Shown piece by piece: positions 17,503 through 62,150 of a stretch of 64,000 nucleotides of DNA (positions are counted from its first letter, which is position 1; every line of letters begins with the position of its first letter). A model generated the notes under the pieces. The model was given only the letters and a program-made list of their open reading frames with translations, was not told the origin of the DNA and did no database searches. Source of the stretch: Candidatus Latescibacterota bacterium (GTDB taxonomy: Bacteria > Latescibacterota > UBA2968); contig OZ240241.1 of assembly GCA_965198115.1 (NCBI GenBank), positions 3,744,001-3,808,000 of the forward strand, read 5' to 3'. The position numbers were made by a program, and so were the translations under genes.

Positions 17503-20500
17503 TCAAGGCGTCGCCATCAAATCCTATTCGCCTGGCGAGCTACGACTGCTCGCGGCCGAGGGCCGACTCAAGGGGCGGGCGTCGATCAGCTGGTCAACCT
17601 GCGAGGCACCGCCGACGCCGACCGAGCCATCGGCGAACACGCCTTCTACGCCCTCGCTGCAAGGATGTCCTGCTGGACCGATCCGCTCGACCTCGTTCGC
17701 ACGTTTCTCGCCCTGGCAAGAACACCGAGCCCCTCAGGCGAAGAGGACGCCGTCGCGGACGTGATCTTACCTCGACTCAACGAGCTCGGATTCGCGGTCG
17801 AACGCGACGCCGTGGGCAACCTGATCGCTCACCTGCCATTGACCTCAACCACCGCACCCAACTTGCTGTTCACCGCACATATGGACTGCGTTTACCCCGG
17901 TGGGTCCGCGCCAGTCGTAGCGGTTCTCCACCGCTCGGGCGACATCGCAACCGACGGCCGGAACAGTTTGGGAGCCGATGACAAGGCAGGCATCGCGGCC
18001 ATTCTCGCGGCCCTCCGTTTCATCGTCCACGGGGAATCGCCACACGGCGAAATCAGGGTGGTCTTCACAGTGCAGGAAGAACGCGGTTGGAGGGGCATCA
18101 AGCAGGTCCCCGCGCGTATCCTGAACGGGATTCACCTCGTCTTCAGTATGGATCCGCCGGTGCGCGTCGAACGGGACGAAACAGCTTTTATGGCCGTGCT
18201 TCACGCCCACCGGGGGCACCCGATTGAGGACCTGGTTCGGTCCGCCGCCCTCGACGTGGACGGGGATCCGCTGATCCTCTATGCCGAAGACGGCTACGTC
18301 GGTGGAGACACCATCTGCCTGTCCCCCCTGGGCGCCCTCGTCGTCGACTTCTGTTCGGGCAGCCGCTACTCCCACACGACCCACGAACACATCCGGCTCA
18401 TCGACTTCACGCGGCAGACGAGTTGGATGATCGCGACGGCCGAGCGCTTTCTGCGTCTGGATCGGAACGACCTCGAGCTGCGTGCCGTCTATGGCGAAGA
18501 ACCCATCGGCAACCTGACGGGTGTCCGCAAGCAGATCCCGCTCACACCCGACTTCCTCGCCGAGAAGATCGCCCAGGCCAGAAGCCTCCACACCCTTCCC
18601 GGTCCGAGTCTGGCAAACACACTGGCGCACCTCTCGGCGATGGCCCCGCGTGCGGGCGACCCCGACCTCCTCGACGCCGTCGTCCAGGCCTACGCGCAGG
18701 GCCTTCGCGTCGACCAGGTGCCGCAGGTTCAGCGCGCGATCACTTCGGCCCTGATGCACCTCGCTACGAACCTCGCCGACGTGCGTCCACTCGAACCGGT
18801 AATTCCTGTCGTTCGGAGCTTCATCGTTGGCGGAGGCGACGACACGGCTCGTGCCAGCGCCATACGGTTCCTCGAAGAGCTCTTCGTCAAAGAACGGCGC
18901 GTGCGTGTGAAGGAAGACCTCGTACGCACCCTGATCGTAATGCTTCAGAGTGCGTCTCCGACTGTAACGGAGTGTCTGACCAACTTCTTCCGGACGAACC
19001 TGGACGACACGATCCACGCGCTCACCCTGGCGTTCTGCAACCGTCACCGGGCGGGATGGGAGCGACTCACACGGGTCAACCAGGGCCGCCTCGTCGACGG
19101 TCGCAAGCGACGGTCCGACGCCCCGGGGTGGACCCTGATCCGTCAGCGCATACTCCAGCTCCTTTTGGAGGAAGACCGGCTCCTCCCGGAGATGCTCGAC
19201 TGGATCTTCACCCACGACGGAGGCGCCACCCAACGGATCGCGGTCGACTACATCGACCCGGGGAAGACCACGCGCGTCGCCGACCGGATCCTCAGAAACC
19301 TCAAGAGCCGCGAGCGCGGCGTTCAGGAAACAGCGTTACACTTCGTCGGCAGTCACCGAATGGAGCAGGCCATCCCGCCGCTGATCGACCTGCTCCTGAC
19401 GCCCCATCTCTGCCGCAATCGCAGCCTCGCCGAGTGGGCCCTCGACGCGATTGGTCGCCCGGCGCTCGACCCGGTCATCAACCGTCTCGGTGCCGACGCG
19501 GAGTACGAGACGTTGGTCTGGAGAATGTTCAACCGACACGACACGTCGACGGACGCGGACTTCGATCTGTTGATCGACAGGCTTGCGAACCAATACGGCA
19601 AAGCCTTCTCGCCGTCCGATCCGTCACAGGTGATGATCCTCTCTTATTACCTCAGCATCGACCCGTTCACCCACCTGACAGACCTCACCCGGTGGGATCG
19701 ACGTCGATCGATCGTCTTCTACGATCGACTGATGGAGCTCTACACGGATGGAGAGGAAGTCAATCGACTGGTCGAGCTGATCGAAGAGTGCGAGGGCGGA
19801 TCACGAACGTATTTCCTCCGAATGTCGATCCAGAAGAATCTGTTCGAAGATCCGGGCCTGCTGGCGCTCGTGTCACGCGAGAACGCTCGCTTCCTCGAAA
19901 ACTTCGTCCGTCTCGAAAATCAGATTCCTCAACACATCATCCTCGCGCGACTCAGGGAGTTCGCGAACGGCGCGCAGCTGGATATGCGCGACCCGAACGA
20001 CGTCGAGATCTACTACCTCTACCTGCTTCAGCAGAGCCCCCGGATGCCCGACCGGACGCAGTATCTGACCCACATCGCCGAAGCGGCCCGGTATCTGTTC
20101 CCGCCGTTGAAACCTTACTGCAAGGCCTTCAGCATTTCGGGCGATCGTATCGAGGAGGTCGGGACGGTCGATCGGGACCGCGTTCGCACGCTCATCGAGA
20201 GCCTCCCACAAAAGGCTTCGCGTTCGGAGCGTCTCCGCCGGCTCATTCTCGACAGCGGGCTCGCCAAACGCGAGCAGAACCGCCTCATCAACGGGCTGAG
20301 CGAGGCCATCGGCATCGACGTCAGCCCCTACAGCTCCGTCGAGGACCGCGCAGACGCTCTGATCCACGAAATCGACTTCGAATTCGACTCGGCCTACCGA
20401 ATCGTACCGCTCGTCGTGTATCCTGTCCTGATGCGCGTCCGGATGAACCATCGAAGCGACGGCGTCCTCAGTCCTCTGGCTGACTACGCGATCGAATTCG

Positions 20501-21708
20501 CGATGATCAACCACCCCGAAATCGCCGAAACCTTCGACACCAGCGAAATCGACCTGATCCTCGATGGGCTGAACGACCTGCTGACGGACCGGGTCTATGA
20601 AGCAGAGCGAGAGCTGTTGGAAGATGTGTTTCCAGAGCTCCTCGATCGTCACAAAGACACACTCGGGAAGTTCCACACCAGCCAGTGGCGCTCGATCGTC
20701 AAGCGACTCGAGAGCTACGTCGAAGACGGTCGCCAGCGCGATCTGTTCGACACGACCATCGAAACGATGGAAGACTACGACATCACCGACGACGAAGCGG
20801 CCGCCCTACTCGACACGAACCTCGCTCGTCTCGTCGCCGTCGTTCGACCCACCGATCGGGACCTCCTGACGACGCACGCTCGACACCGCGAATTCCACCA
20901 GGTTTACGATGCCATCCTGCGTGTACGGAATCTTCGACAGCTCAAACGGATCTACAAAGAGGTCTATCTGATCCTGCAGGACACGATCTCCTACGCGAGT
21001 CGCGAACACCCATCAAAAGAGAAGCCGTCGACGCGTCTGCAGGGTGGGGACGAGGCAGAAGAGGTCACGCGGTCGCCCTACGCCACGGAGAAGGGATACC
21101 TCAAATACGCGCGAAAGGAGCTTGGACGGCTCACCAAACTGATGAGCGATTTCGTGCTCGAGCGCACCCTGGCCGATCGGCTCCGCATCGTCCAGTCGGA
21201 AATCACGAAGCTGCGCCAGGTCGTCGTGGGCACCCATCAGATCCTCTGCGTGCCGAGCAAAGACGTCAGCATCATCTACCGAAGCTGGCCGGGCAACGAC
21301 TGCAACACGGGAGACATCAAGCAGATCCTTTGCCCCGACGGCTCCTTTTACAAGATCATCGCGGACGGGCACTGGAAGGGCTACTTCACGCTCGTCGAGC
21401 TCCGTCGTCGCAACCAGCGCGGATTTTTGCTCGACGTGTTGAACTTCAGCGGGCTGCGGATGGACAACGAGAGTTTCGTCAAGGTCCTGATGCACCAGAT
21501 CATCCAAACCGCACAGGCTGAGGGCGTCGACTACGTCCTGGCCAGCCCGAACGACGTCCATCTGTCGAACCGCGATTACATTCGACGCGCCTTCCGAAAA
21601 GTCTTCCCCGTTCTTGGTACCGAGCAGACCTTCGGTCTCATCAACGAACCCCGAGCCAACTTCCAATCGCTTCAACCGAACCTCGCCGTCGTCTGGAAAC
21701 GGGACTGA
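17489..21708 (+). CDS. Giant M20-like metallopeptidase - HEAT/helical repeat - C-terminal alpha/beta domain protein
   Basis: ORF 17665-21708 (1,347 aa) has AHMD, GADDKAG, QEERG, SMD, GGD, SHTTHE; HEAT-like AIPPLIDLL..AEWALDAIGRPALDP. Probable true start GTG 17489 with one G missing at 17572-17575. Confidence 0.8.
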
Positions 21709-21767: not shown

Positions 21768-22673
21768 ATGCCCGAGTATCCTGATGTCGAAGTCTACGTC
21801 CGATGCCTCAGGAAGCGCGTCGTCGACCAGGTCATCGAAGACGCCCGCATCGCCAGTCCCTTCGTCGTCAGAACCTACGATCCACCGATCGGCGACATCG
21901 TTGGAAAGCGAATCCTGACCGTCAGCCGTCTCGGCAAGCGTATCGTCCTCGGCCTCCAGGATGACCTCCATTTCGTCCTGCATCTGATGATCGCCGGCCG
22001 GCTCCGCTGGAAAGAGCGCGGCGTCAAGCTTGCCCGCCGCCTCGGTCTGGCCGCGATCGATTTCTCCGACGGCAGCCTCAGCTTCACCGAAGCCGGAACG
22101 AAGAAACGTGCTTCGATCCATCTCGTCCGCGGCAGAGACACCTTGACCGAATTCGATCGCGGCGGCATCGAGGTGTTCGAAGCTTCCATCGACGCCTTCG
22201 ATCGTGCACTCCGGTGCGAAAACCACACCCTCAAGCGTTCCCTCACCGATCCTCGTCTCTTCTCCGGCATCGGCAACGCCTACTCAGACGAAATCCTGCA
22301 TCGTGCCGGACTTTCCCCCCTCAAGCACTCGACCCGGCTGACCGAAGACGAAGTCGAGCGACTCTTCGAAGCCACACGTGACACCCTCGCCGAATGGACC
22401 GAGCGACTCGAAGAGGAGGTCGGCGACGGGTTCCCCGACAAGGTCACCGCCTTCCATCCGGAAATGGCCGTCCACGGCAAGTATGATCAGCCCTGCCCCG
22501 AATGCGATTCCCCCGTCCAGCGCATCCGCTATGCCGAGAACGAATGCAACTACTGCGCAACGTGCCAGACCGACGGTAAGGTCCTCGCCGACCGAGGTCT
22601 CTCGCGCCTGCTCAAGCAAGACTGGCCCCGAACGTTAGAAGACCTCGAAGAACTTCGAAAACCAAACCCATGA
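21768..22673 (+). CDS. Fpg/Nei family DNA glycosylase
   Basis: MPEYPDV N-terminus, RLGK, HLMIAG, SGIGNAYSDEILH (H2TH), C-terminal CxxC..CxxC finger. Confidence 0.93.
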   Translation: MPEYPDVEVYVRCLRKRVVDQVIEDARIASPFVVRTYDPPIGDIVGKRILTVSRLGKRIVLGLQDDLHFVLHLMIAGRLRWKERGVKLARRLGLAAIDFSDGSLSFTEAGTKKRASIHLVRGRDTLTEFDRGGIEVFEASIDAFDRALRCENHTLKRSLTDPRLFSGIGNAYSDEILHRAGLSPLKHSTRLTEDEVERLFEATRDTLAEWTERLEEEVGDGFPDKVTAFHPEMAVHGKYDQPCPECDSPVQRIRYAENECNYCATCQTDGKVLADRGLSRLLKQDWPRTLEDLEELRKPNP

Positions 22674-23101
22674 AACACGAAGACGCGAAGACACCAAGAA
22701 AGGCGATGAGGCACCCTTCTCTGTCGGAGGAGGAGGAGAAATCGGGGTCCGAGATCGTCGATGTAGCATTTGCCGTACACGCTGCGATGGGTTCTGGACT
22801 CTTGGAGAGCATTTACGAAAAGTGCTTTGGCCACGAGCTCGGTCTTCGTGGCTTGAAAGTTGATCGTCAGGTCTCCATCCCTATTCGATACAAAGATCTT
22901 GACTTGAAGGACGGACTTAGATTGGATGTGTTGGTCGAGGATAAGGTGATCTGCGAGATTAAGGCGACCAATTCCGACACAGCAATCTTCGAGGCACAAC
23001 TGCTCACCTACATGAAACTCAGCCAGAAACGCCTCGGCTTCCTCATCAACTTCAACGTTCCCAAGATCGAGGACGGGATCACCCGAATGGTCCTTCGATG
23101 A
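22670..23101 (+). CDS. GxxExxY protein (PD-(D/E)XK nuclease-like)
   Basis: GSGLLESIYE, RLDVLVEDKVICEIKA, AQLLTYMKL, GFLINF; ATGA overlap with the glycosylase gene. Confidence 0.93.
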   Translation: MKHEDAKTPRKAMRHPSLSEEEEKSGSEIVDVAFAVHAAMGSGLLESIYEKCFGHELGLRGLKVDRQVSIPIRYKDLDLKDGLRLDVLVEDKVICEIKATNSDTAIFEAQLLTYMKLSQKRLGFLINFNVPKIEDGITRMVLR

Positions 23102-23142
23102 TTCCCCACCGGGTCTCCTTCGTGTCTTCGCGCCTTCGGGTT
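22674..23142. repeat. 25-bp inverted repeats (9-bp periodic) bracketing the GxxExxY gene
   Basis: AACACGAAGACGCGAAGACACCAAG (22674-22698) vs CTTCGTGTCTTCGCGCCTTCGGGTT (23118-23142): 22/25 complementary. Confidence 0.8.
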
Positions 23143-23165
23143 AGTCTTCTTCGTTTGGAGGTTCT

Positions 23166-24392
23166 ATGGGTGTTGACACCATAGAATTGCCAAACGGAAT
23201 ACGCGTCGTCGTGGAGCCGATGGCGGGGGCGAAATCTGTCGTGCTGGCGATGCGGTTCGGGTTTGGCGCGAAGGACGATCCGCACGATCGGTTGGGAATG
23301 GCTCGGATCGCGGAGGATGTCCTGTTCAAGGGCACACCCAGTCGGGATGCGCGGGAGGTCTTCGATGCGTTCGATGCCCTGGGCGTACGACGTGGGTCCT
23401 CGACGCAGGTCGAACACACGCAGTTCCAGGCGCAGTTTCTGCCAGAACATTTCGAATCCGTCTGTGCGCTCTACGAGGAAATGTTCAGCACGGCCTCGTT
23501 CCCCGCCGCGGAAGTCGACGTGACGAAGACCATCACGCTCGAGGAACTCAAGCGGCTCGAGGACAGTCCGATTCAACAGGCGATGCTGCTGACTTTCAAA
23601 GCCGCTCTGGGGGAACCGCTCGGGCGCGTGCCGCTCGGCGAACCGCAGACGCTCGAGCTGGTGACGCCAGCGGGCGTTCGGCGTTTCTGGACCGACCACT
23701 GTCGACCCGATACCCTCATCATCTCTGTCGCCGGCGGGATCGATCGAGAACGAGTCGTTGAAACGATCCAGGATGTCTTCGGTGGCTGGGCGAGCAATGG
23801 CACGGTTGAGCCGGATGACCACGCGGTGACGATCGTCGATCGTCAGGTCCATCACGAGAAAGAATCGGAACAGGAACACATCGGCATCGTCTTTGGATCG
23901 GTGCCGCGGGGACACGACTTCTACTATCCTGCGCAGGTGGCGATCGCCGTACTCTCAGGAAGCGGGTCGAGCCGGCTCTTTACCGAAGTGCGCGAGAAGC
24001 GTGGACTGGCCTACAGTGTCTCCGCCTTTTACAGGGCGCGAAGGAACGGTGGCCTGATCGCCCTTTACGCCGGCACCACGGCCGATCGTGCGGAGGAAAC
24101 GCTTCGTGTGTGTCGTCACGAAGTCGCCAGATTGGCCGAGGATGTGACCCGAGACGAGCTCGGGCGCGCCAAGACCGTCCTCAAGGGCGGTTTGTTCACG
24201 ACCGGTGATCTTCCCGAGGGGCGAGCGAGCAGCCTTCTCGAAGACGTGTTCCTCGACGGAAACACGCGGACGATCCAGGAAATCGCTGACCGGGTCGACA
24301 GCGTCACGCTCGACCAGATCTCGACCTACCTCAGAGCACACCCCACCGAACCCCAAACCATCGTCACCCTCGGCCCGAAACCTCTGAACTGA
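23166..24392 (+). CDS. M16 peptidase, non-catalytic subunit
   Basis: HXXEH replaced by RIAED; retains SRLFTEVREKRGLAYSV. Confidence 0.9.
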   Translation: MGVDTIELPNGIRVVVEPMAGAKSVVLAMRFGFGAKDDPHDRLGMARIAEDVLFKGTPSRDAREVFDAFDALGVRRGSSTQVEHTQFQAQFLPEHFESVCALYEEMFSTASFPAAEVDVTKTITLEELKRLEDSPIQQAMLLTFKAALGEPLGRVPLGEPQTLELVTPAGVRRFWTDHCRPDTLIISVAGGIDRERVVETIQDVFGGWASNGTVEPDDHAVTIVDRQVHHEKESEQEHIGIVFGSVPRGHDFYYPAQVAIAVLSGSGSSRLFTEVREKRGLAYSVSAFYRARRNGGLIALYAGTTADRAEETLRVCRHEVARLAEDVTRDELGRAKTVLKGGLFTTGDLPEGRASSLLEDVFLDGNTRTIQEIADRVDSVTLDQISTYLRAHPTEPQTIVTLGPKPLN

Positions 24393-24402
24393 CCGACCCG
24401 GA

Positions 24403-25674
24403 GTGTCGACAAAGCACATATCTCGGATCCAAATGAACTCACCATTCAGCAAACACACACTCAATAACGGCCTCACTCTCCTCTTCGAGGCCATCCCGAG
24501 AATCAACTCCGCCGCCGTCGGCTTTTTCGCGAACACCGGATCACGCGACGAGGCAGCCGAACAGGGCGGCATCTCGCACTTCCTCGAACATATGTGCTTC
24601 AAAGGAACCAGTAAGCGAGACTGGCGGCAGCTGAGTCTCGATGTCGATGACCTCGGCGCCACGTGGAATGCCTACACGTGGTGGGAAGGCACCGCCTATT
24701 TCCATTGGGTTCAGAGCGAGCGGGCGACGCAGTCGATCGAGATCCTCGCCGATATGATGCGATCGACGATTCCGAACGAGGAATTCGACACCGAGAAAAA
24801 GGTCATCCTCGAAGAGATCGCGATGTATCACGACCGTCCCGATTCGCTCATCTTCGACGAGCTGATCAGAACCGCCTTTCCCGATCATCCACTGGGACAA
24901 TCCGTGATCGGTACGGAGGACACCGTCGGCGCGCTGACCCGCGATCAGATGGCCGATTACTACGCGCGTCGATACGCACCTGACAATATGACGTTCATCG
25001 TAACCGGAAAGTTTGACCAGGACGAAATCGTCGCCACCGTCGAATCGCTCTGCGGCGACTGGACGCCCGGCGAATCGGGACGCGAACAGCCTGACCCGAC
25101 GTTCACAGGACAGACCCACGTGGTGGAACGCGACAACGTGACCCGCGAACACGTCACGATGGCCTTCCCGGCGCCGTTCGGCGCCAGTCCAGATGCCACG
25201 ACGGCAGAGATGCTCTCATCCTACCTGGGCGCATCGACCAACAGTCGCCTGTATTGGGCGGTCGTTCAGAACGGATTGGCCGACGAAGCCACAGCGGACT
25301 ACATCGGTCTCAGCGATACCGGACTGTTCTACATTTATCTCTCCGTCGATCCGAGCCGAACCGAAGAAGCCCTCGACGTCGTGCGCAGGGAATGCCGAGC
25401 CCTACACGAGCAGATCGATGGCGAATCACTCGAGCGCGCCAAGACCAGGGCCGCAACGTCCGTCGTGTGCAGCGGTGAGCATGGGCTACAGCGTTTCGGT
25501 CAGCTCGTCGGCGATATCAGCTGCAACGCCCCCCTCCGATCGCTCGATCAGCAGATCGACGAGATTCGCGCCGTCGATGCGGATCGAATCGCGGCCTACC
25601 TCGCGACCTATCCCCTCGACCGAGAACCCGCACTCGTCGCCCTCGGTCCGCTGTCTGACCTATCTCGTGCCTAA
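24403..25674 (+). CDS. M16 peptidase, catalytic subunit
   Basis: GSRDE..GISHFLEHMCFKGT, NAYT, EKKVILEE. Start may be ATG 24433. Confidence 0.92.
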   Translation: MSTKHISRIQMNSPFSKHTLNNGLTLLFEAIPRINSAAVGFFANTGSRDEAAEQGGISHFLEHMCFKGTSKRDWRQLSLDVDDLGATWNAYTWWEGTAYFHWVQSERATQSIEILADMMRSTIPNEEFDTEKKVILEEIAMYHDRPDSLIFDELIRTAFPDHPLGQSVIGTEDTVGALTRDQMADYYARRYAPDNMTFIVTGKFDQDEIVATVESLCGDWTPGESGREQPDPTFTGQTHVVERDNVTREHVTMAFPAPFGASPDATTAEMLSSYLGASTNSRLYWAVVQNGLADEATADYIGLSDTGLFYIYLSVDPSRTEEALDVVRRECRALHEQIDGESLERAKTRAATSVVCSGEHGLQRFGQLVGDISCNAPLRSLDQQIDEIRAVDADRIAAYLATYPLDREPALVALGPLSDLSRA

Positions 25675-29975: not shown

Positions 29976-30838
29976 GACTGCACCCAGATCTCTTCCTTAG
30001 TGCATGGTTTCATAAACATTATTACGTATGTCCTGAACATTATTTGTAGCTTATGTTCTCCTTCAAAAGGAGGAGAACAATGCCAAGACGTTCGCCTTAT
30101 GTGGTGCTACTGTCTGAGAAGGAACGGGTCGACCTCGAGCGAATGGCTGGACAATATACGTTATCGTATTATCAAGTGATCCGATCGAAAATCGTGCTTC
30201 TCGCCGCCGAGGGATTATCCAACAAGATTATCGCCCAACGGTTGGATGTTCCGCGTCCGATCGTAAGCAAATGGCGTAAGCGCTTTTTCGAAGAGCGTCT
30301 TTCGGGACTCGAAGATAGATCTCGTCCCGGGCGCCCGCCCGGTTTTCCCCCCTCAGGTGGTCGTTCAGATCAAGGCGCTGGCGTGTGAACTACCGAGCGA
30401 GAGCGGGATACCGCTCTCGCGGTTCAGCTGTTCCGAGATTGCCGCCGAGGCAGTGCAAAGGGGCTTCGTTGCCAAGATCAGCGGCGCCACTGTCTGGCGC
30501 TGGTTGAACGAGGACGCGATTCGTCCTTGGTATCATCGCTCCTGGATTTTCCCACGGGACCCGGACTTCCAAACCAAAGCAGGTAGAGTCCTTGATCTGT
30601 ATCACCGCCAATGGCAAGGAAAGCCTTTAGGGCCGAGGGAATATGCCTGAATCATGCATGAATTTGAGTTTAGGTTGTTTTGGAGTGATGTGATCACGCA
30701 CAGGATTTGTTCTCGGCTTCTTCGGATGTCCAAGGTCCCGTAAGCGGTCTCTACGAGTCGCAAGAGTCACGATTTTCGTCCGGAACAGGTGTTGTTTTGC
30801 GACGTGTACATAGCTGTCCCCGGTATAGATCGGCGTTG

Positions 30839-32117
30839 TTACTGCGTGTTCGTTTCGAGCCTGGTGATGATTGACACCAAGACGTTTTTGAGTGGATACG
30901 ATGTTGGAAAATGGAATCGGATTCTTCGTGCGCTTTCAATGACTCTCGCGCCGATTTTGAGGAAACGGTTCTGTATCGTGTTGACCTGAGGTTTGGTCCA
31001 CGCGGTGCCCTTGAGTCCCTGTGATCGGAGTGCGTGAAGCAAGGCGTATGCAGCACTGTGTAGAAAGAGTCGGAACTGGTTGGCTTCAAACTTGTGGCAC
31101 GATGTTCGATCGGATACGATCATAGATAAAGCCGTCTCGATTACTCTGTAAATTGGTCACGCGGTATCTTGGATTTGCTTCGCCGTTTGTGACTTCAGCC
31201 TTGTGAATGATCCGGCGAGGCTGCCGGTAGGTGCCAGCCTGATATGAGAAGGATGAGAACAAGCGAATCGTCTCCTTATGCTCGCTCAGACGTAGCGCTT
31301 GGTCCATCAGGTTTTGTCCAGCCGCTTTGAGCTTGGAGTTGGCGCCCTGGCCCAGAACGTAGTAGATACCGTTGTCTTCGCAGAAATCGTGCATCTCTGG
31401 TGAGCTGAACTTTGAGTCTGCGCGAACGATGATCTCCACGTTTGGCCAAGATCCGCGTAGGTGTTCCACCAAGCGCTTGAGAATAGAAACGACCTGTTTA
31501 CCGTTCGTCGGATGCCCGGGTCTCAAGATCGTCGTAATGAGCTTGCCGCTTTGGCCTTCATAGATATGTAGCGGCATATAGCAGTGTTCATTGTAATACG
31601 CGTTGAAGAGTGAAAATTGTTGCGCACCGTGCGTTGGGTCATCCGTGTCGTCGATATCGAGAATGATGCTTGGGGGTGCCTGGTCATACGATGCGATGAA
31701 CCCGTCTACAAAAGCCCGTGCGAGCCGATACAAATCCGAGCGTCGCACATCATTCTCAAGTCGTGTCATCGTTGATTGGCTCCCGAGATCAGGACCGGAA
31801 AGAGGAAGCCGATCGCAGGCAGCCTTGACGCCCGGATCGTGGCGCAAATCATCACAATCGACGGCATCTTCATAGCCGCAAGCGATCTGAAAAACACGCT
31901 GCTTCACAAGATCCAAAAGCGTGTGATCGATATAGCTTGGGTGACGACGATCTCGCAAAGCATCTACCATTCTGGCGATCAATCCCATCTGAGACTCAAG
32001 GGCGCGAAGCAACAGAACTCCACCGTCACTCCTGACGGCGCCACCGGCAAAATCAGCCTCAACTACCTTGCCCGAAATGCTTGCGAATGGTAACCGGATC
32101 TGACTAGGTTCTATCAC
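30839..32117 (-). pseudogene. IS1380 transposase with internal deletion/frameshift near 31112
   Basis: SDGGVLL, GYEDAVD, SQSTMTRLEN, LDIDDTDD..HGAQQ, RADS; jumps from YDRI to SDRTSCHKFEANQF in another frame, lacking the usual RG..EN.IKE segment. Confidence 0.85.
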
Positions 32118-32204
32118 GGTAGTTCCTTCCAAGTGTTGTTTTGATGTGTCAGCCCTAATGTAGGGAAAAACAAACACTTGTACAAGGAGACTACCTTTTT
32201 TATG

Positions 32205-33624
32205 GGCTCTATCCGGGTTTCTCAACGGTGAAACTATAGAATGACAAGGTCATAGATCGTTCCCTACGCTTGGTTGTGTGTGTAGGACAATCAAAGCGAA
32301 GGGGGTGCGACCTATGACCGGGAGCAGATTACTATCGAAACTGCTGAGATTCAAGGGGTTCCGTGTTGTCAGCTGGTGGTTTGAGGGGAGAAGCTGCTTC
32401 GTCATCGCCGTAAAGCCACATAAGAATGGTTGTTGTTGTCCGGAGTGCGGCCGTCGAGGTAAAATCGTCCGCACAATGCCCCATCCGCGTCGGTGGCGTG
32501 ACATTCCGGTGTGCGGGTGGAGGGTCTGGCTTCTCTACCATCCTCGGGAGATTCGGTGTCCTACCCACGGTCGTGTGGTCGAGGAGATTCCGTGGGCGGA
32601 GCGGTTCTCTCGGGTGACGTATCGCTTCGAGTATGCCATGCTGCGCTACTGCCAGACCATGACGCAGAAGGCGGCGTCCGAGTTACTGCGCATCTCTGCC
32701 TCGACGCTGTCGGATCTCCTTCACCGATCCATCACGCGGCTTCGTGAAGGTCATCGTATCCGAGGGCTCAAAACCATCGGGATCGACGAGATCTCCTACG
32801 CCAAGCGTCACAGGTACGCCACGCTCGTTTACGATCTGGACCGCTCCTGCGTGGTGTGGGTTGGCCGCGGCAGGGCGCGTAAAACGATCGATCGGTTCTT
32901 CACAGAGGCTCTCAGTCCCTACCGGAGATCCAAGATCGAGTGGGCCTGCTGCGACATGAGCGAAGCTTACATCGGAGCCATCCAGGAACACTGTCCGAAT
33001 GCCAAGCTGGTCCTCGATCGCTTTCACATCGTCAAGGCTCTCAATGCCGCCGTTGACGAGGTCCGTAAGGACCAGTGGCGTAAAGCTGCCCCGGATGAGC
33101 GCAAAGCCATGAAGGGCCTCCGATGGCTCCTCTACCGGCACTCAGCGACACGCTCCAGAGGGGATACTCGGACACTCAAAGCACTGGAGAAGGCGAACTA
33201 CCGAATCTATAGAGCCTGGAGACTCAAGGACGAGTTCGAGCAGTTCTGGGAATACAAAGCGCCCTGGGCTGCCGAACGCTTCCTGAAATGCTGGACGACG
33301 TCCGCACTCAGAAGTCGACTTGAACCCCTGCGAAAGTTCGTCAGGACCCTGCGACAGCACTTCTTCGGCGTCCTCGCATTCGTGAACACGCGTCTTACCA
33401 ACGCCATCGCCGAAGGCCTCAACCGAATCGTCCAAATCGTCAAGAACCGAGCCAGCGGATTCCGCACACTCGACGCATTCAACGATATGATCTTCCTTAC
33501 CGTCGGAGACATAAACATCCCTGAGCAGATTCCGAAGAGGTTCCGCACACGCTAACCGCGCCCCCATGCCAGGAACCACGGCACCTTCACCCACTTCATC
33601 TCGTTGAGAGATCCGGATATAGCC
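32205..33624 (+). mobile_element. ISL3-family insertion sequence, copy 2 (inner layer, 1,420 bp)
   Basis: Same IRs as copy 1; direct repeat TTTTTTATG at 32196-32204 and 33625-33633. Confidence 0.93.
32314..33555 (+). CDS. ISL3 transposase (intact)
   Basis: CPEC..CPTH finger, IGIDE, CCDM, LDRFH, AEGLN. Confidence 0.93.
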   Translation: MTGSRLLSKLLRFKGFRVVSWWFEGRSCFVIAVKPHKNGCCCPECGRRGKIVRTMPHPRRWRDIPVCGWRVWLLYHPREIRCPTHGRVVEEIPWAERFSRVTYRFEYAMLRYCQTMTQKAASELLRISASTLSDLLHRSITRLREGHRIRGLKTIGIDEISYAKRHRYATLVYDLDRSCVVWVGRGRARKTIDRFFTEALSPYRRSKIEWACCDMSEAYIGAIQEHCPNAKLVLDRFHIVKALNAAVDEVRKDQWRKAAPDERKAMKGLRWLLYRHSATRSRGDTRTLKALEKANYRIYRAWRLKDEFEQFWEYKAPWAAERFLKCWTTSALRSRLEPLRKFVRTLRQHFFGVLAFVNTRLTNAIAEGLNRIVQIVKNRASGFRTLDAFNDMIFLTVGDINIPEQIPKRFRTR

Positions 33625-62051: not shown

Positions 62052-62150
62052 GACACGAAGGCAAGAAGGCGCGAGGAAGAGATAGGGCCCGAAAGGCGGT
62101 GGCTGTGCCCGCCCACAGGGCTTTCCTTCGCGTCTTGGCGCCTTCGTGTT
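62052..62150. repeat. Empty (gene-less) copy of the GxxExxY-type inverted repeat pair
   Basis: GACACGAAGGCAAGAAGGCGCGAGG (62052-62076) and CTTCGCGTCTTGGCGCCTTCGTGTT (62126-62150) around a 49-bp spacer. Confidence 0.72.

Follow-up and report, generated by a model that had tools for sequence, protein, structure and literature searches.

Ssn nucleases are encoded by small single-domain genes flanked by a repeat (NTS/SRM) that is also dispersed through intergenic regions, and many such gene-repeat pairs exist; according to the available text of PMC11893778, Ssn cuts single-stranded DNA (ssDNA) at its own repeat, and its authors suggest that the system is a domesticated mobile element. In RAYT/REP-REPIN systems (REPtrons), a low-copy, vertically kept gene is accompanied by long-persisting intergenic repeats that depend on the gene, together with doublets of facing repeats that lack a gene (10.1101/2021.07.10.451892, available portion). 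TIRtrons place the gene of a TIRYT between inverted repeats that sometimes form a dispersed family, and several gene-repeat types may occur in one genome, as far as the available text of PMC3733652 goes. IS200/IS605 elements act on ssDNA at the replication fork, which in the account available in PMC5027513 leads to an orientation bias toward the lagging-strand template. Some features of each of these systems recur at the locus described here, the arrangement of TIRtrons being the closest in layout and the IS200/IS605 bias being resembled by that of unpaired repeats.

The locus carries a gene of the GxxExxY family (PF13366/TIGR04256) and lies in a 64,000-nucleotide stretch of DNA from a Candidatus Latescibacterota genome (G000), the whole of which is referred to as the window. 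GxxExxY is a common family, also called PDDEXK_3, whose function is given as "Unknown" in PMC3424549, and the available text of that source makes no mention of repeats. Our literature search, which covered few subscription papers and main texts without supplements, found no description of a link between GxxExxY proteins and repeats. The present analysis newly corrects the repeat period, looks for and finds no signal of an RNA stem, dates the site as old, and describes a replication-strand bias. We propose, with confidence somewhat above even, that the protein and the arms around its gene form a nuclease-repeat system in which the protein likely binds a triple octamer and likely cuts beside an arm, probably on ssDNA, and in which repair would keep and spread the arms.

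RESULTS

The GxxExxY gene is enclosed by a pair of inverted arms between two host genes (Table 1). As the preliminary description had it, the arms are 25 nt long and complementary at 22/25 positions (88%); they are 419 nt apart. The pair ranked first among 42 inverted pairs found between positions 22300 and 23500, and its local score was 35 compared with a maximum of 23 over 30 shuffles (row L002). The units had been read as 9-mers, but autocorrelation was maximal at 8 in both arms (0.49 and 0.40), which rules out a 9-bp period for the window's arms; 9-mer arms do occur at other GxxExxY clades, e.g., at loci L001 and L035. A promoter and terminator scan found neither around the cassette. A 7,767-nt contig from three sequencing runs of one study spans positions 22256 to 25000 without differences, and no contig joint skipping the cassette was found in those data; because the runs possibly derive from the source sample itself, the contig lends no independent support to the cassette structure.

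Table 1. Features of the cassette and its surroundings, with positions in the window
Feature	Position	Strand	Remarks
Fpg/Nei-type DNA glycosylase gene	21768..22673	+	Host flank; stop overlaps outer end of left arm
GxxExxY gene (PF13366/TIGR04256)	22670..23101	+	143 aa counted from first ATG
Left arm	22674..22698	+	A then three 8-nt units, ACACGAAG ACGCGAAG ACACCAAG; 1 of ~98 genome-wide copies
Right arm	23118..23142	-	Reads A ACCCGAAG GCGCGAAG ACACGAAG on minus strand; same repeat as left arm
M16 peptidase-like gene	23166..24392	+	Host flank; first of a pair, second M16-like gene at 24403-25674
Gene-less facing arm pair	62052..62150		Arms 62052-62076 (+) and 62126-62150 (-); spacer of ~50 nt

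Several other features were observed in the window. The gene-less facing pair lies directly after a stop codon and has a small GC-rich stem inside its spacer. An imperfect 18-bp inverted repeat (83%, 9-nt loop) lies just outside the right arm at positions 23152 to 23196, where it spans the ribosome-binding site and start codon of the first M16 gene; it was not evident in G001, a genome of the same genus. Positions 17665 to 21708 encode, on the plus strand, a 1347-aa protein that has an M20/M42 peptidase domain at its N terminus as well as HEAT-like repeats, matches no Pfam family over about 750 residues, and is 84% identical in G001. Transposase-like open reading frames and fragments were recognized from translations at positions 30053 to 32225.

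The 143-aa open reading frame scored 124 bits against a cutoff of 22 for PF13366 and 130 bits against a cutoff of 35 for TIGR04256 and is a full member of the family, with the GxxExxY motif present as GLLESIY at residues 43 to 49. The whole protein matched only these two models, and neither an HUH Y1 transposase nor a GIY-YIG domain was found. Residues E46, D86, E96, K98, Q110, and Y114 are invariant across 15 diverse members and intact in the window's copy. The protein thus has the residues expected of a PD-(D/E)XK enzyme of the RecB family, namely, an acidic motif I, the motif II aspartate, E-x-K, and QxxxY after motif III, the last being a mark of RecB-family nucleases according to the available text of PMC2475608. 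The best Foldseek match of the AlphaFold model (pLDDT 90.5, with residues 9 to 14 below 50) was the Cas4 protein SSO0001 at an E value of 6e-3, none being below 0.001, and a VIA-align comparison with SSO0001 gave a Z score of 7.8 and an rmsd of 4.0 over 100 aligned residues; other PD-(D/E)XK folds gave Z scores of 7 to 8, values near 8 being common. The only PADLOC match was a weak one to Cas4b (E value, 0.004), and a search of the ESM Atlas returned GxxExxY clusters only. We conclude that the PD-(D/E)XK fold claimed earlier for the protein is borne out by its conserved active-site residues and that the model matches support this predicted fold, not a function.

The window's copy sits on a long branch (0.97 compared with a median of 0.21) and departs from the consensus at 13 well-kept positions, none of them catalytic, and it may therefore be decaying; dN/dS between it and the less diverged G001 copy is about 0.15. 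Six PF13366 matches are present in the genome, with no near-identical copies of the GxxExxY gene among them, as the paralogs are about 32% identical or fragments, and a search of genome contigs with the window's own protein found no relative. GxxExxY genes are carried by 55 of 151 genomes of the phylum. Among 72,556 plasmid records, 6 matched the protein, and a search of 50,697 phage records gave no match.

To relate arms and protein family, 171 loci were entered, 92 from this phylum and 79 across phyla found with the G001 protein; 169 had full-length genes, and 138 were kept after removal of those with short flanks or more than 90% identity. Inverted arms with a match score of at least 26 flanked 101 of the 138 loci compared with 1 of 138 intervals shifted by 1.1 kb, and flanking inverted repeats are therefore present at GxxExxY loci other than that of the window. 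No arms were found at this cutoff at 37 of 138 loci, and direct repeats were also present at 58 of 138. All 50 rows with octamer arms fell inside one 79-row branch of the protein tree (SH-aLRT, 97) that spans many phyla. Moreover, ten repeat labels needed 36 changes on the tree compared with 78.4 in shuffles, for a quick tree of 122 columns in which 34 rows were unlabeled, labels were set after the arms had been viewed, and kin are not independent. Paralogs within one genome carry different repeats, and at 41 of 50 loci, foreign arms from the same family gave a poorer fit than own arms.

The number of arms was also related to the protein. Among 151 genomes of the phylum, at least 10 8-mer arms were present in 14 of the 19 that have the matching clade, in 12 of 37 with other GxxExxY proteins only, and in 2 of 95 with none, the matching clade being set at an E value of 1e-26 or better, a cut placed at a gap in the list after the data had been seen. 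In genus g4, the sole matching-clade genome of 20 has 49 arms and the rest have 0 to 7; the contrast was weaker in genus g7, with 30 to 68 arms versus 9 to 44. Abundant arms also occur where the matching clade was not found (80 in G051, 44 in G150, and 38 in G035). We conclude that repeat type follows the protein tree and that repeat number follows the matching protein clade.

The loci with arms bear on the junction with the upstream gene. The preliminary description held that the left arm encodes the N terminus of the protein in frame and that an ATGA overlap couples the cassette to the gene before it. Both the overlap, between ATG 22670 and the stop of the Fpg-like gene, and the in-frame peptide KHEDAKTPR are present in the sequence, but the peptide is not conserved, and the stop inside the left arm of G001 argues against in-frame coupling as a feature of the element. 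A stop codon separates arm and gene at 51 of 101 loci, and a start upstream of the arm within the same open frame exists at only 28 of 101. These 28 loci, the G001 stop, and the poor modeling of residues 1 to 20 indicate that the working start is probably ATG 22706 rather than 22670. Since arms often abut upstream stops (below), the ATGA junction is one instance of a general habit.

A weight matrix identified 98 merged copies of the triple-octamer repeat in the 8.43-Mb genome from 118 raw matches, compared with 3 raw matches in a 6-mer shuffle at the same cutoff. The window's arms are two of these about 98 copies and are not unique to its gene. By a crude gene caller of our own (81% coding), 95 of 98 arms are intergenic, with the outer end nearer the gene edge in 81 of 95 (median distance, 23 versus 143 nt), as it is in 51 of 53 arms of a second family. 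An upstream stop codon is abutted by 25 of 98 arms (null mean, 5.5; maximum, 12). Within each arm, the 8-mers are arrayed as direct repeats, and the arms are not self-complementary hairpins of the REP or SRM kind. Most arms are unpaired; the matrix gave 10 facing pairs, 9 of them without a gene and with spacers of 47 to 123 nt. These 10 spacers are unrelated to one another (maximum score, 22; median, 14), by which a MITE with a fixed interior was rejected, and inspection by eye found no obvious target duplication at these pairs; near-identical copies with a shared interior and a target duplication, as expected of an insertion sequence or MITE, were not found. Within 600 bp inside an arm, GxxExxY genes or remnants occur only twice across the 98 arms.

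Related arrangements were noted in other genomes. G152 (via L171) and G153 have more than 200 related octamer arms, many of them in tight facing or back-to-back doublets, like BIME-like clusters; copy numbers above 200 occur in Planctomycetota genomes. Arm families are exchanged at orthologous sites of G000 and G001 (L224 and L225). The same insertion sequence of about 1.3 to 1.6 kb lies inside arm-bounded intergenic regions at G000:C1:5792513 and 6731943, and both sites are without it in G001.

To date the site, the Fpg-M16 junction was compared among relatives. In G001 the same junction is filled by a GxxExxY gene that has its own arms, and decayed cassette remnants are found there in G002, G007, and G010, which belong to another genus. 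No empty junction was found in 41 genomes searched, the flanking genes being adjacent in none beyond these four; in more distant relatives the M16 gene occurs without a cassette, as does an Fpg-like gene in G036, and the two genes are never adjacent. We conclude that the cassette site is old. The GxxExxY proteins of G000 and G001 at this site are 52% identical (dS, 2.7 to 3.1), whereas the flanking genes are 79 to 87% identical (dS, 1.2 to 1.6 by LWL85 and up to 2.8 in one segment by NG86) and another syntenic GxxExxY pair of the two genomes is 80% identical (dS, 1.55). This divergence of two intact copies suggests, from the sequences compared, either a swap or fast drift.

A swap would fit an autonomous mobile cassette, in which the nuclease moves arm, gene, and arm together into junctions or replaces residents and leaves gene-less arms as relics. 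We judge this explanation unlikely but not negligible. An AU test left common descent of the two copies standing (p 0.11), and at the site itself the filled junction of G001, the remnants in three further genomes, and the lack of an empty junction, an obvious target duplication, or a joint skipping the cassette all speak against the autonomous mobility first proposed. A mobile cassette would account for the grouping of GxxExxY proteins across phyla, for the multiple transfers of the family reported in the available text of PMC3424549, and for outgroup M16 and Fpg genes without a cassette, but not readily for the absence of near-identical gene copies, the 10 unrelated spacers without obvious target duplication by eye, or the finding of only two genes or remnants inside 98 arms. 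Two further loci are in its favor. One is a junction upstream of an N6-methylase gene (restriction-modification-like) at L034, L035, L059, L070, and L080 (G018, G029, G022, G088, and G136), at which three GxxExxY clades of 35 to 49% identity with different repeats are found in G018, G029, and G022; the other, L185:2470-4100 (G155:C5:123594-125220), has four tandem GxxExxY cassettes with a 401-bp period and shared arms. Thus, what endures of the RAYT/REPIN-like element claimed at the outset is a gene-arm unit that recurs across phyla and has gene-less copies, and what is left without support is autonomous mobility at the site.

The persistence of arms was followed in the same pair of genomes. 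Of 24 matches, 2 were duplicates, and the remaining 22 G001 arm loci were tested in G000; 12 were syntenic on both sides. An arm is present in G000 at 7 of these 12 sites; inspection by eye found worn traces at another 3, and the remaining 2 have no arm. Because arms persist at 7 of 12 sites despite a flank dS of 1.2 to 2.8, they are maintained. We conclude that arm turnover is slow, as for REPINs in the available portion of 10.1101/2021.07.10.451892.

The genome contains four further arm families (15, 58, 11, and 25 copies; reversed controls, 0 to 1). Other repeat families are found in the same intergenic regions as the arms, and for 11 of 98 octamer arms the facing partner within 300 nt belongs to a different GxxExxY repeat family, compared with 2% at random intergenic sites, so that pairing is not strictly clade specific. 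This sharing, and the survival of arms in genomes in which no matching gene was found, would be expected if another enzyme or host recombination spread the arms and GxxExxY genes were passive cargo between them. Such an origin is improbable in our view, given that repeat type tracks the GxxExxY tree across phyla, that paralogs of one genome differ in their repeats, that no other gene was seen inside any of the 10 facing 8-mer pairs of G000, and that the active site is conserved.

Arm orientation was compared with base skew. Of 70 unpaired octamer arms, 58 had their A-rich strand on the G-rich strand (raw skew, 25-kb half-window), and five arm families together had the same orientation in 131 of 158 (raw skew). 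The bias was alike in co-directional, convergent, and divergent gene contexts; seven control words ranged from 40 to 64%, and two other, G-rich repeat words of this genome were also biased (83/109 and 307/512). When skew was taken from four-fold codon sites, 60 of 66 unpaired arms in this genome, and 22 of 28 in G010 from another genus (p 0.004), had their A-rich strand on the G/T-rich strand. The bias was weak or absent in five more genomes, with counts of 15/21 in G001 (19 regions, six of 8 kb, at sites shared with G000), 23/36 in G018, 11/17 in G030, 12/20 in G027, and 19/38 in G150 (24 of 25 regions), and raw GC skew over the last four (58/111) was not supportive. All of these genomes are from this phylum, and the base skew from which the replication strand was deduced flips several times in this genome. 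The flips in G000 lie near 1.1, 4.8, 5.2, 5.6, 6.0, 6.2, 7.6, and 8.0 Mb and may reflect inversions of large segments or joins made in assembly, and arm orientation tracks the local skew. The G/T-rich strand corresponds in sequence to the leading strand and therefore serves as template for the lagging strand. Mutation pressure toward G and T would be expected to erode A/C-rich arms on the G/T-rich strand and so would not explain the bias. We conclude that the strand trend repeats in part and is not general.

The arms had also been supposed to form an RNA hairpin that loops out the insert. Across 101 loci, sense-strand G-U mismatches numbered 110 and A-C mismatches 127, and none of the three mismatches in the window's arms is a sense G-U. 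Moreover, the 10 facing pairs had a mean of 4.8 mismatches compared with 4.4 to 5.6 for random arm pairs in the genome. As facing arms match no better than random arms, the 22/25 of the window is what two copies of the motif give. With neither a G-U excess nor better pairing, the arms have the appearance of a candidate binding motif present twice and not of a selected stem. That the arms act as RNA, either through transcript pairing that loops out the gene or as processing sites of a GxxExxY ribonuclease, is thus very improbable: arms do hug gene edges, and the 526-nt region does fold somewhat better than shuffles (z, -2.09), but the arms pair only partly in that predicted fold, most arms have no partner, the strand bias does not depend on the direction of neighboring genes, and Rfam gave no match at the gathering score.

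DISCUSSION

We favor a nuclease-repeat system as the explanation of the cassette. The small predicted nuclease would bind its own three-unit, 8-base repeat, and the predicted cut would fall next to the arm, probably on ssDNA at the replication fork. Host repair after the cut would keep arms, convert them, and seed them at gene edges, and it might now and then swap an entire cassette. We know of no joining step for a PD-(D/E)XK nuclease. Facing arms would offer the protein one site per strand, with no need for a hairpin. Consistent with this proposal are the excess of arms at GxxExxY loci over shifted controls, their tracking of the protein tree, the relation of arm number to clade, the separate arm families of paralogs, the conserved active site, the PD-(D/E)XK model matches, the persistence of arms, the strand bias, and the rarity of the protein on plasmids and phages. 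Against it stand the weak bias in other genomes, arms without the matching clade, the loci without arms, labels assigned post hoc, and the long branch of the window's copy.

A bolder form of the proposal is possible, although we would sooner expect it to fail than to hold. GxxExxY proteins may be a third independent class of repeat-associated single-strand nuclease, beside HUH RAYTs and GIY-YIG Ssn. The class would be Cas4/RecB-like and about 130 residues long, would read a nonpalindromic tandem octamer on the lagging-strand template with clade-specific specificity, and would seed that octamer at gene edges across the chromosome and swap its own cassette between sites.

The flanking arm is a candidate substrate that can be read from the genome, and function is therefore directly testable with short oligonucleotides. 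If the protein does cut ssDNA at its own repeat, the family would amount to a large collection of natural site-specific nucleases of very small size, a class of abundant intergenic repeats in uncultured bacteria would be explained, and the design of a nuclease plus repeat would have arisen on three unrelated folds.

Of the systems compared, an HNH insertion inside a gene, as presented in the available text of PMC11855218, was not a close match. As in RAYT systems and TIRtrons, a gene flanked by inverted repeats was found here together with copies of the repeat dispersed between genes. RAYTs are HUH Y1 transposases and REPs are palindromes, whereas the arms here are mostly single, their spacers are unrelated, and the protein clades cross phyla. 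TIRYTs are likewise HUH tyrosine transposases, and the available text of PMC3733652 makes no mention of tandem octamers for their arms. The HUH enzyme of IS200/IS605 cuts and rejoins DNA at elements with subterminal hairpins (PMC5027513, available portion), whereas GxxExxY is a predicted PD-(D/E)XK protein. Ssn is a GIY-YIG enzyme with SRMs that are hairpins, as given in the available text of PMC11893778, whereas the enzyme here is a PD-(D/E)XK protein with QxxxY, known from sequence, and its repeats are tandem octamers that are not self-complementary. By analogy, we suggest that the GxxExxY cassette may work like Ssn/SRM and TIRtrons yet is a member of neither, having a different predicted fold and nonpalindromic arms.
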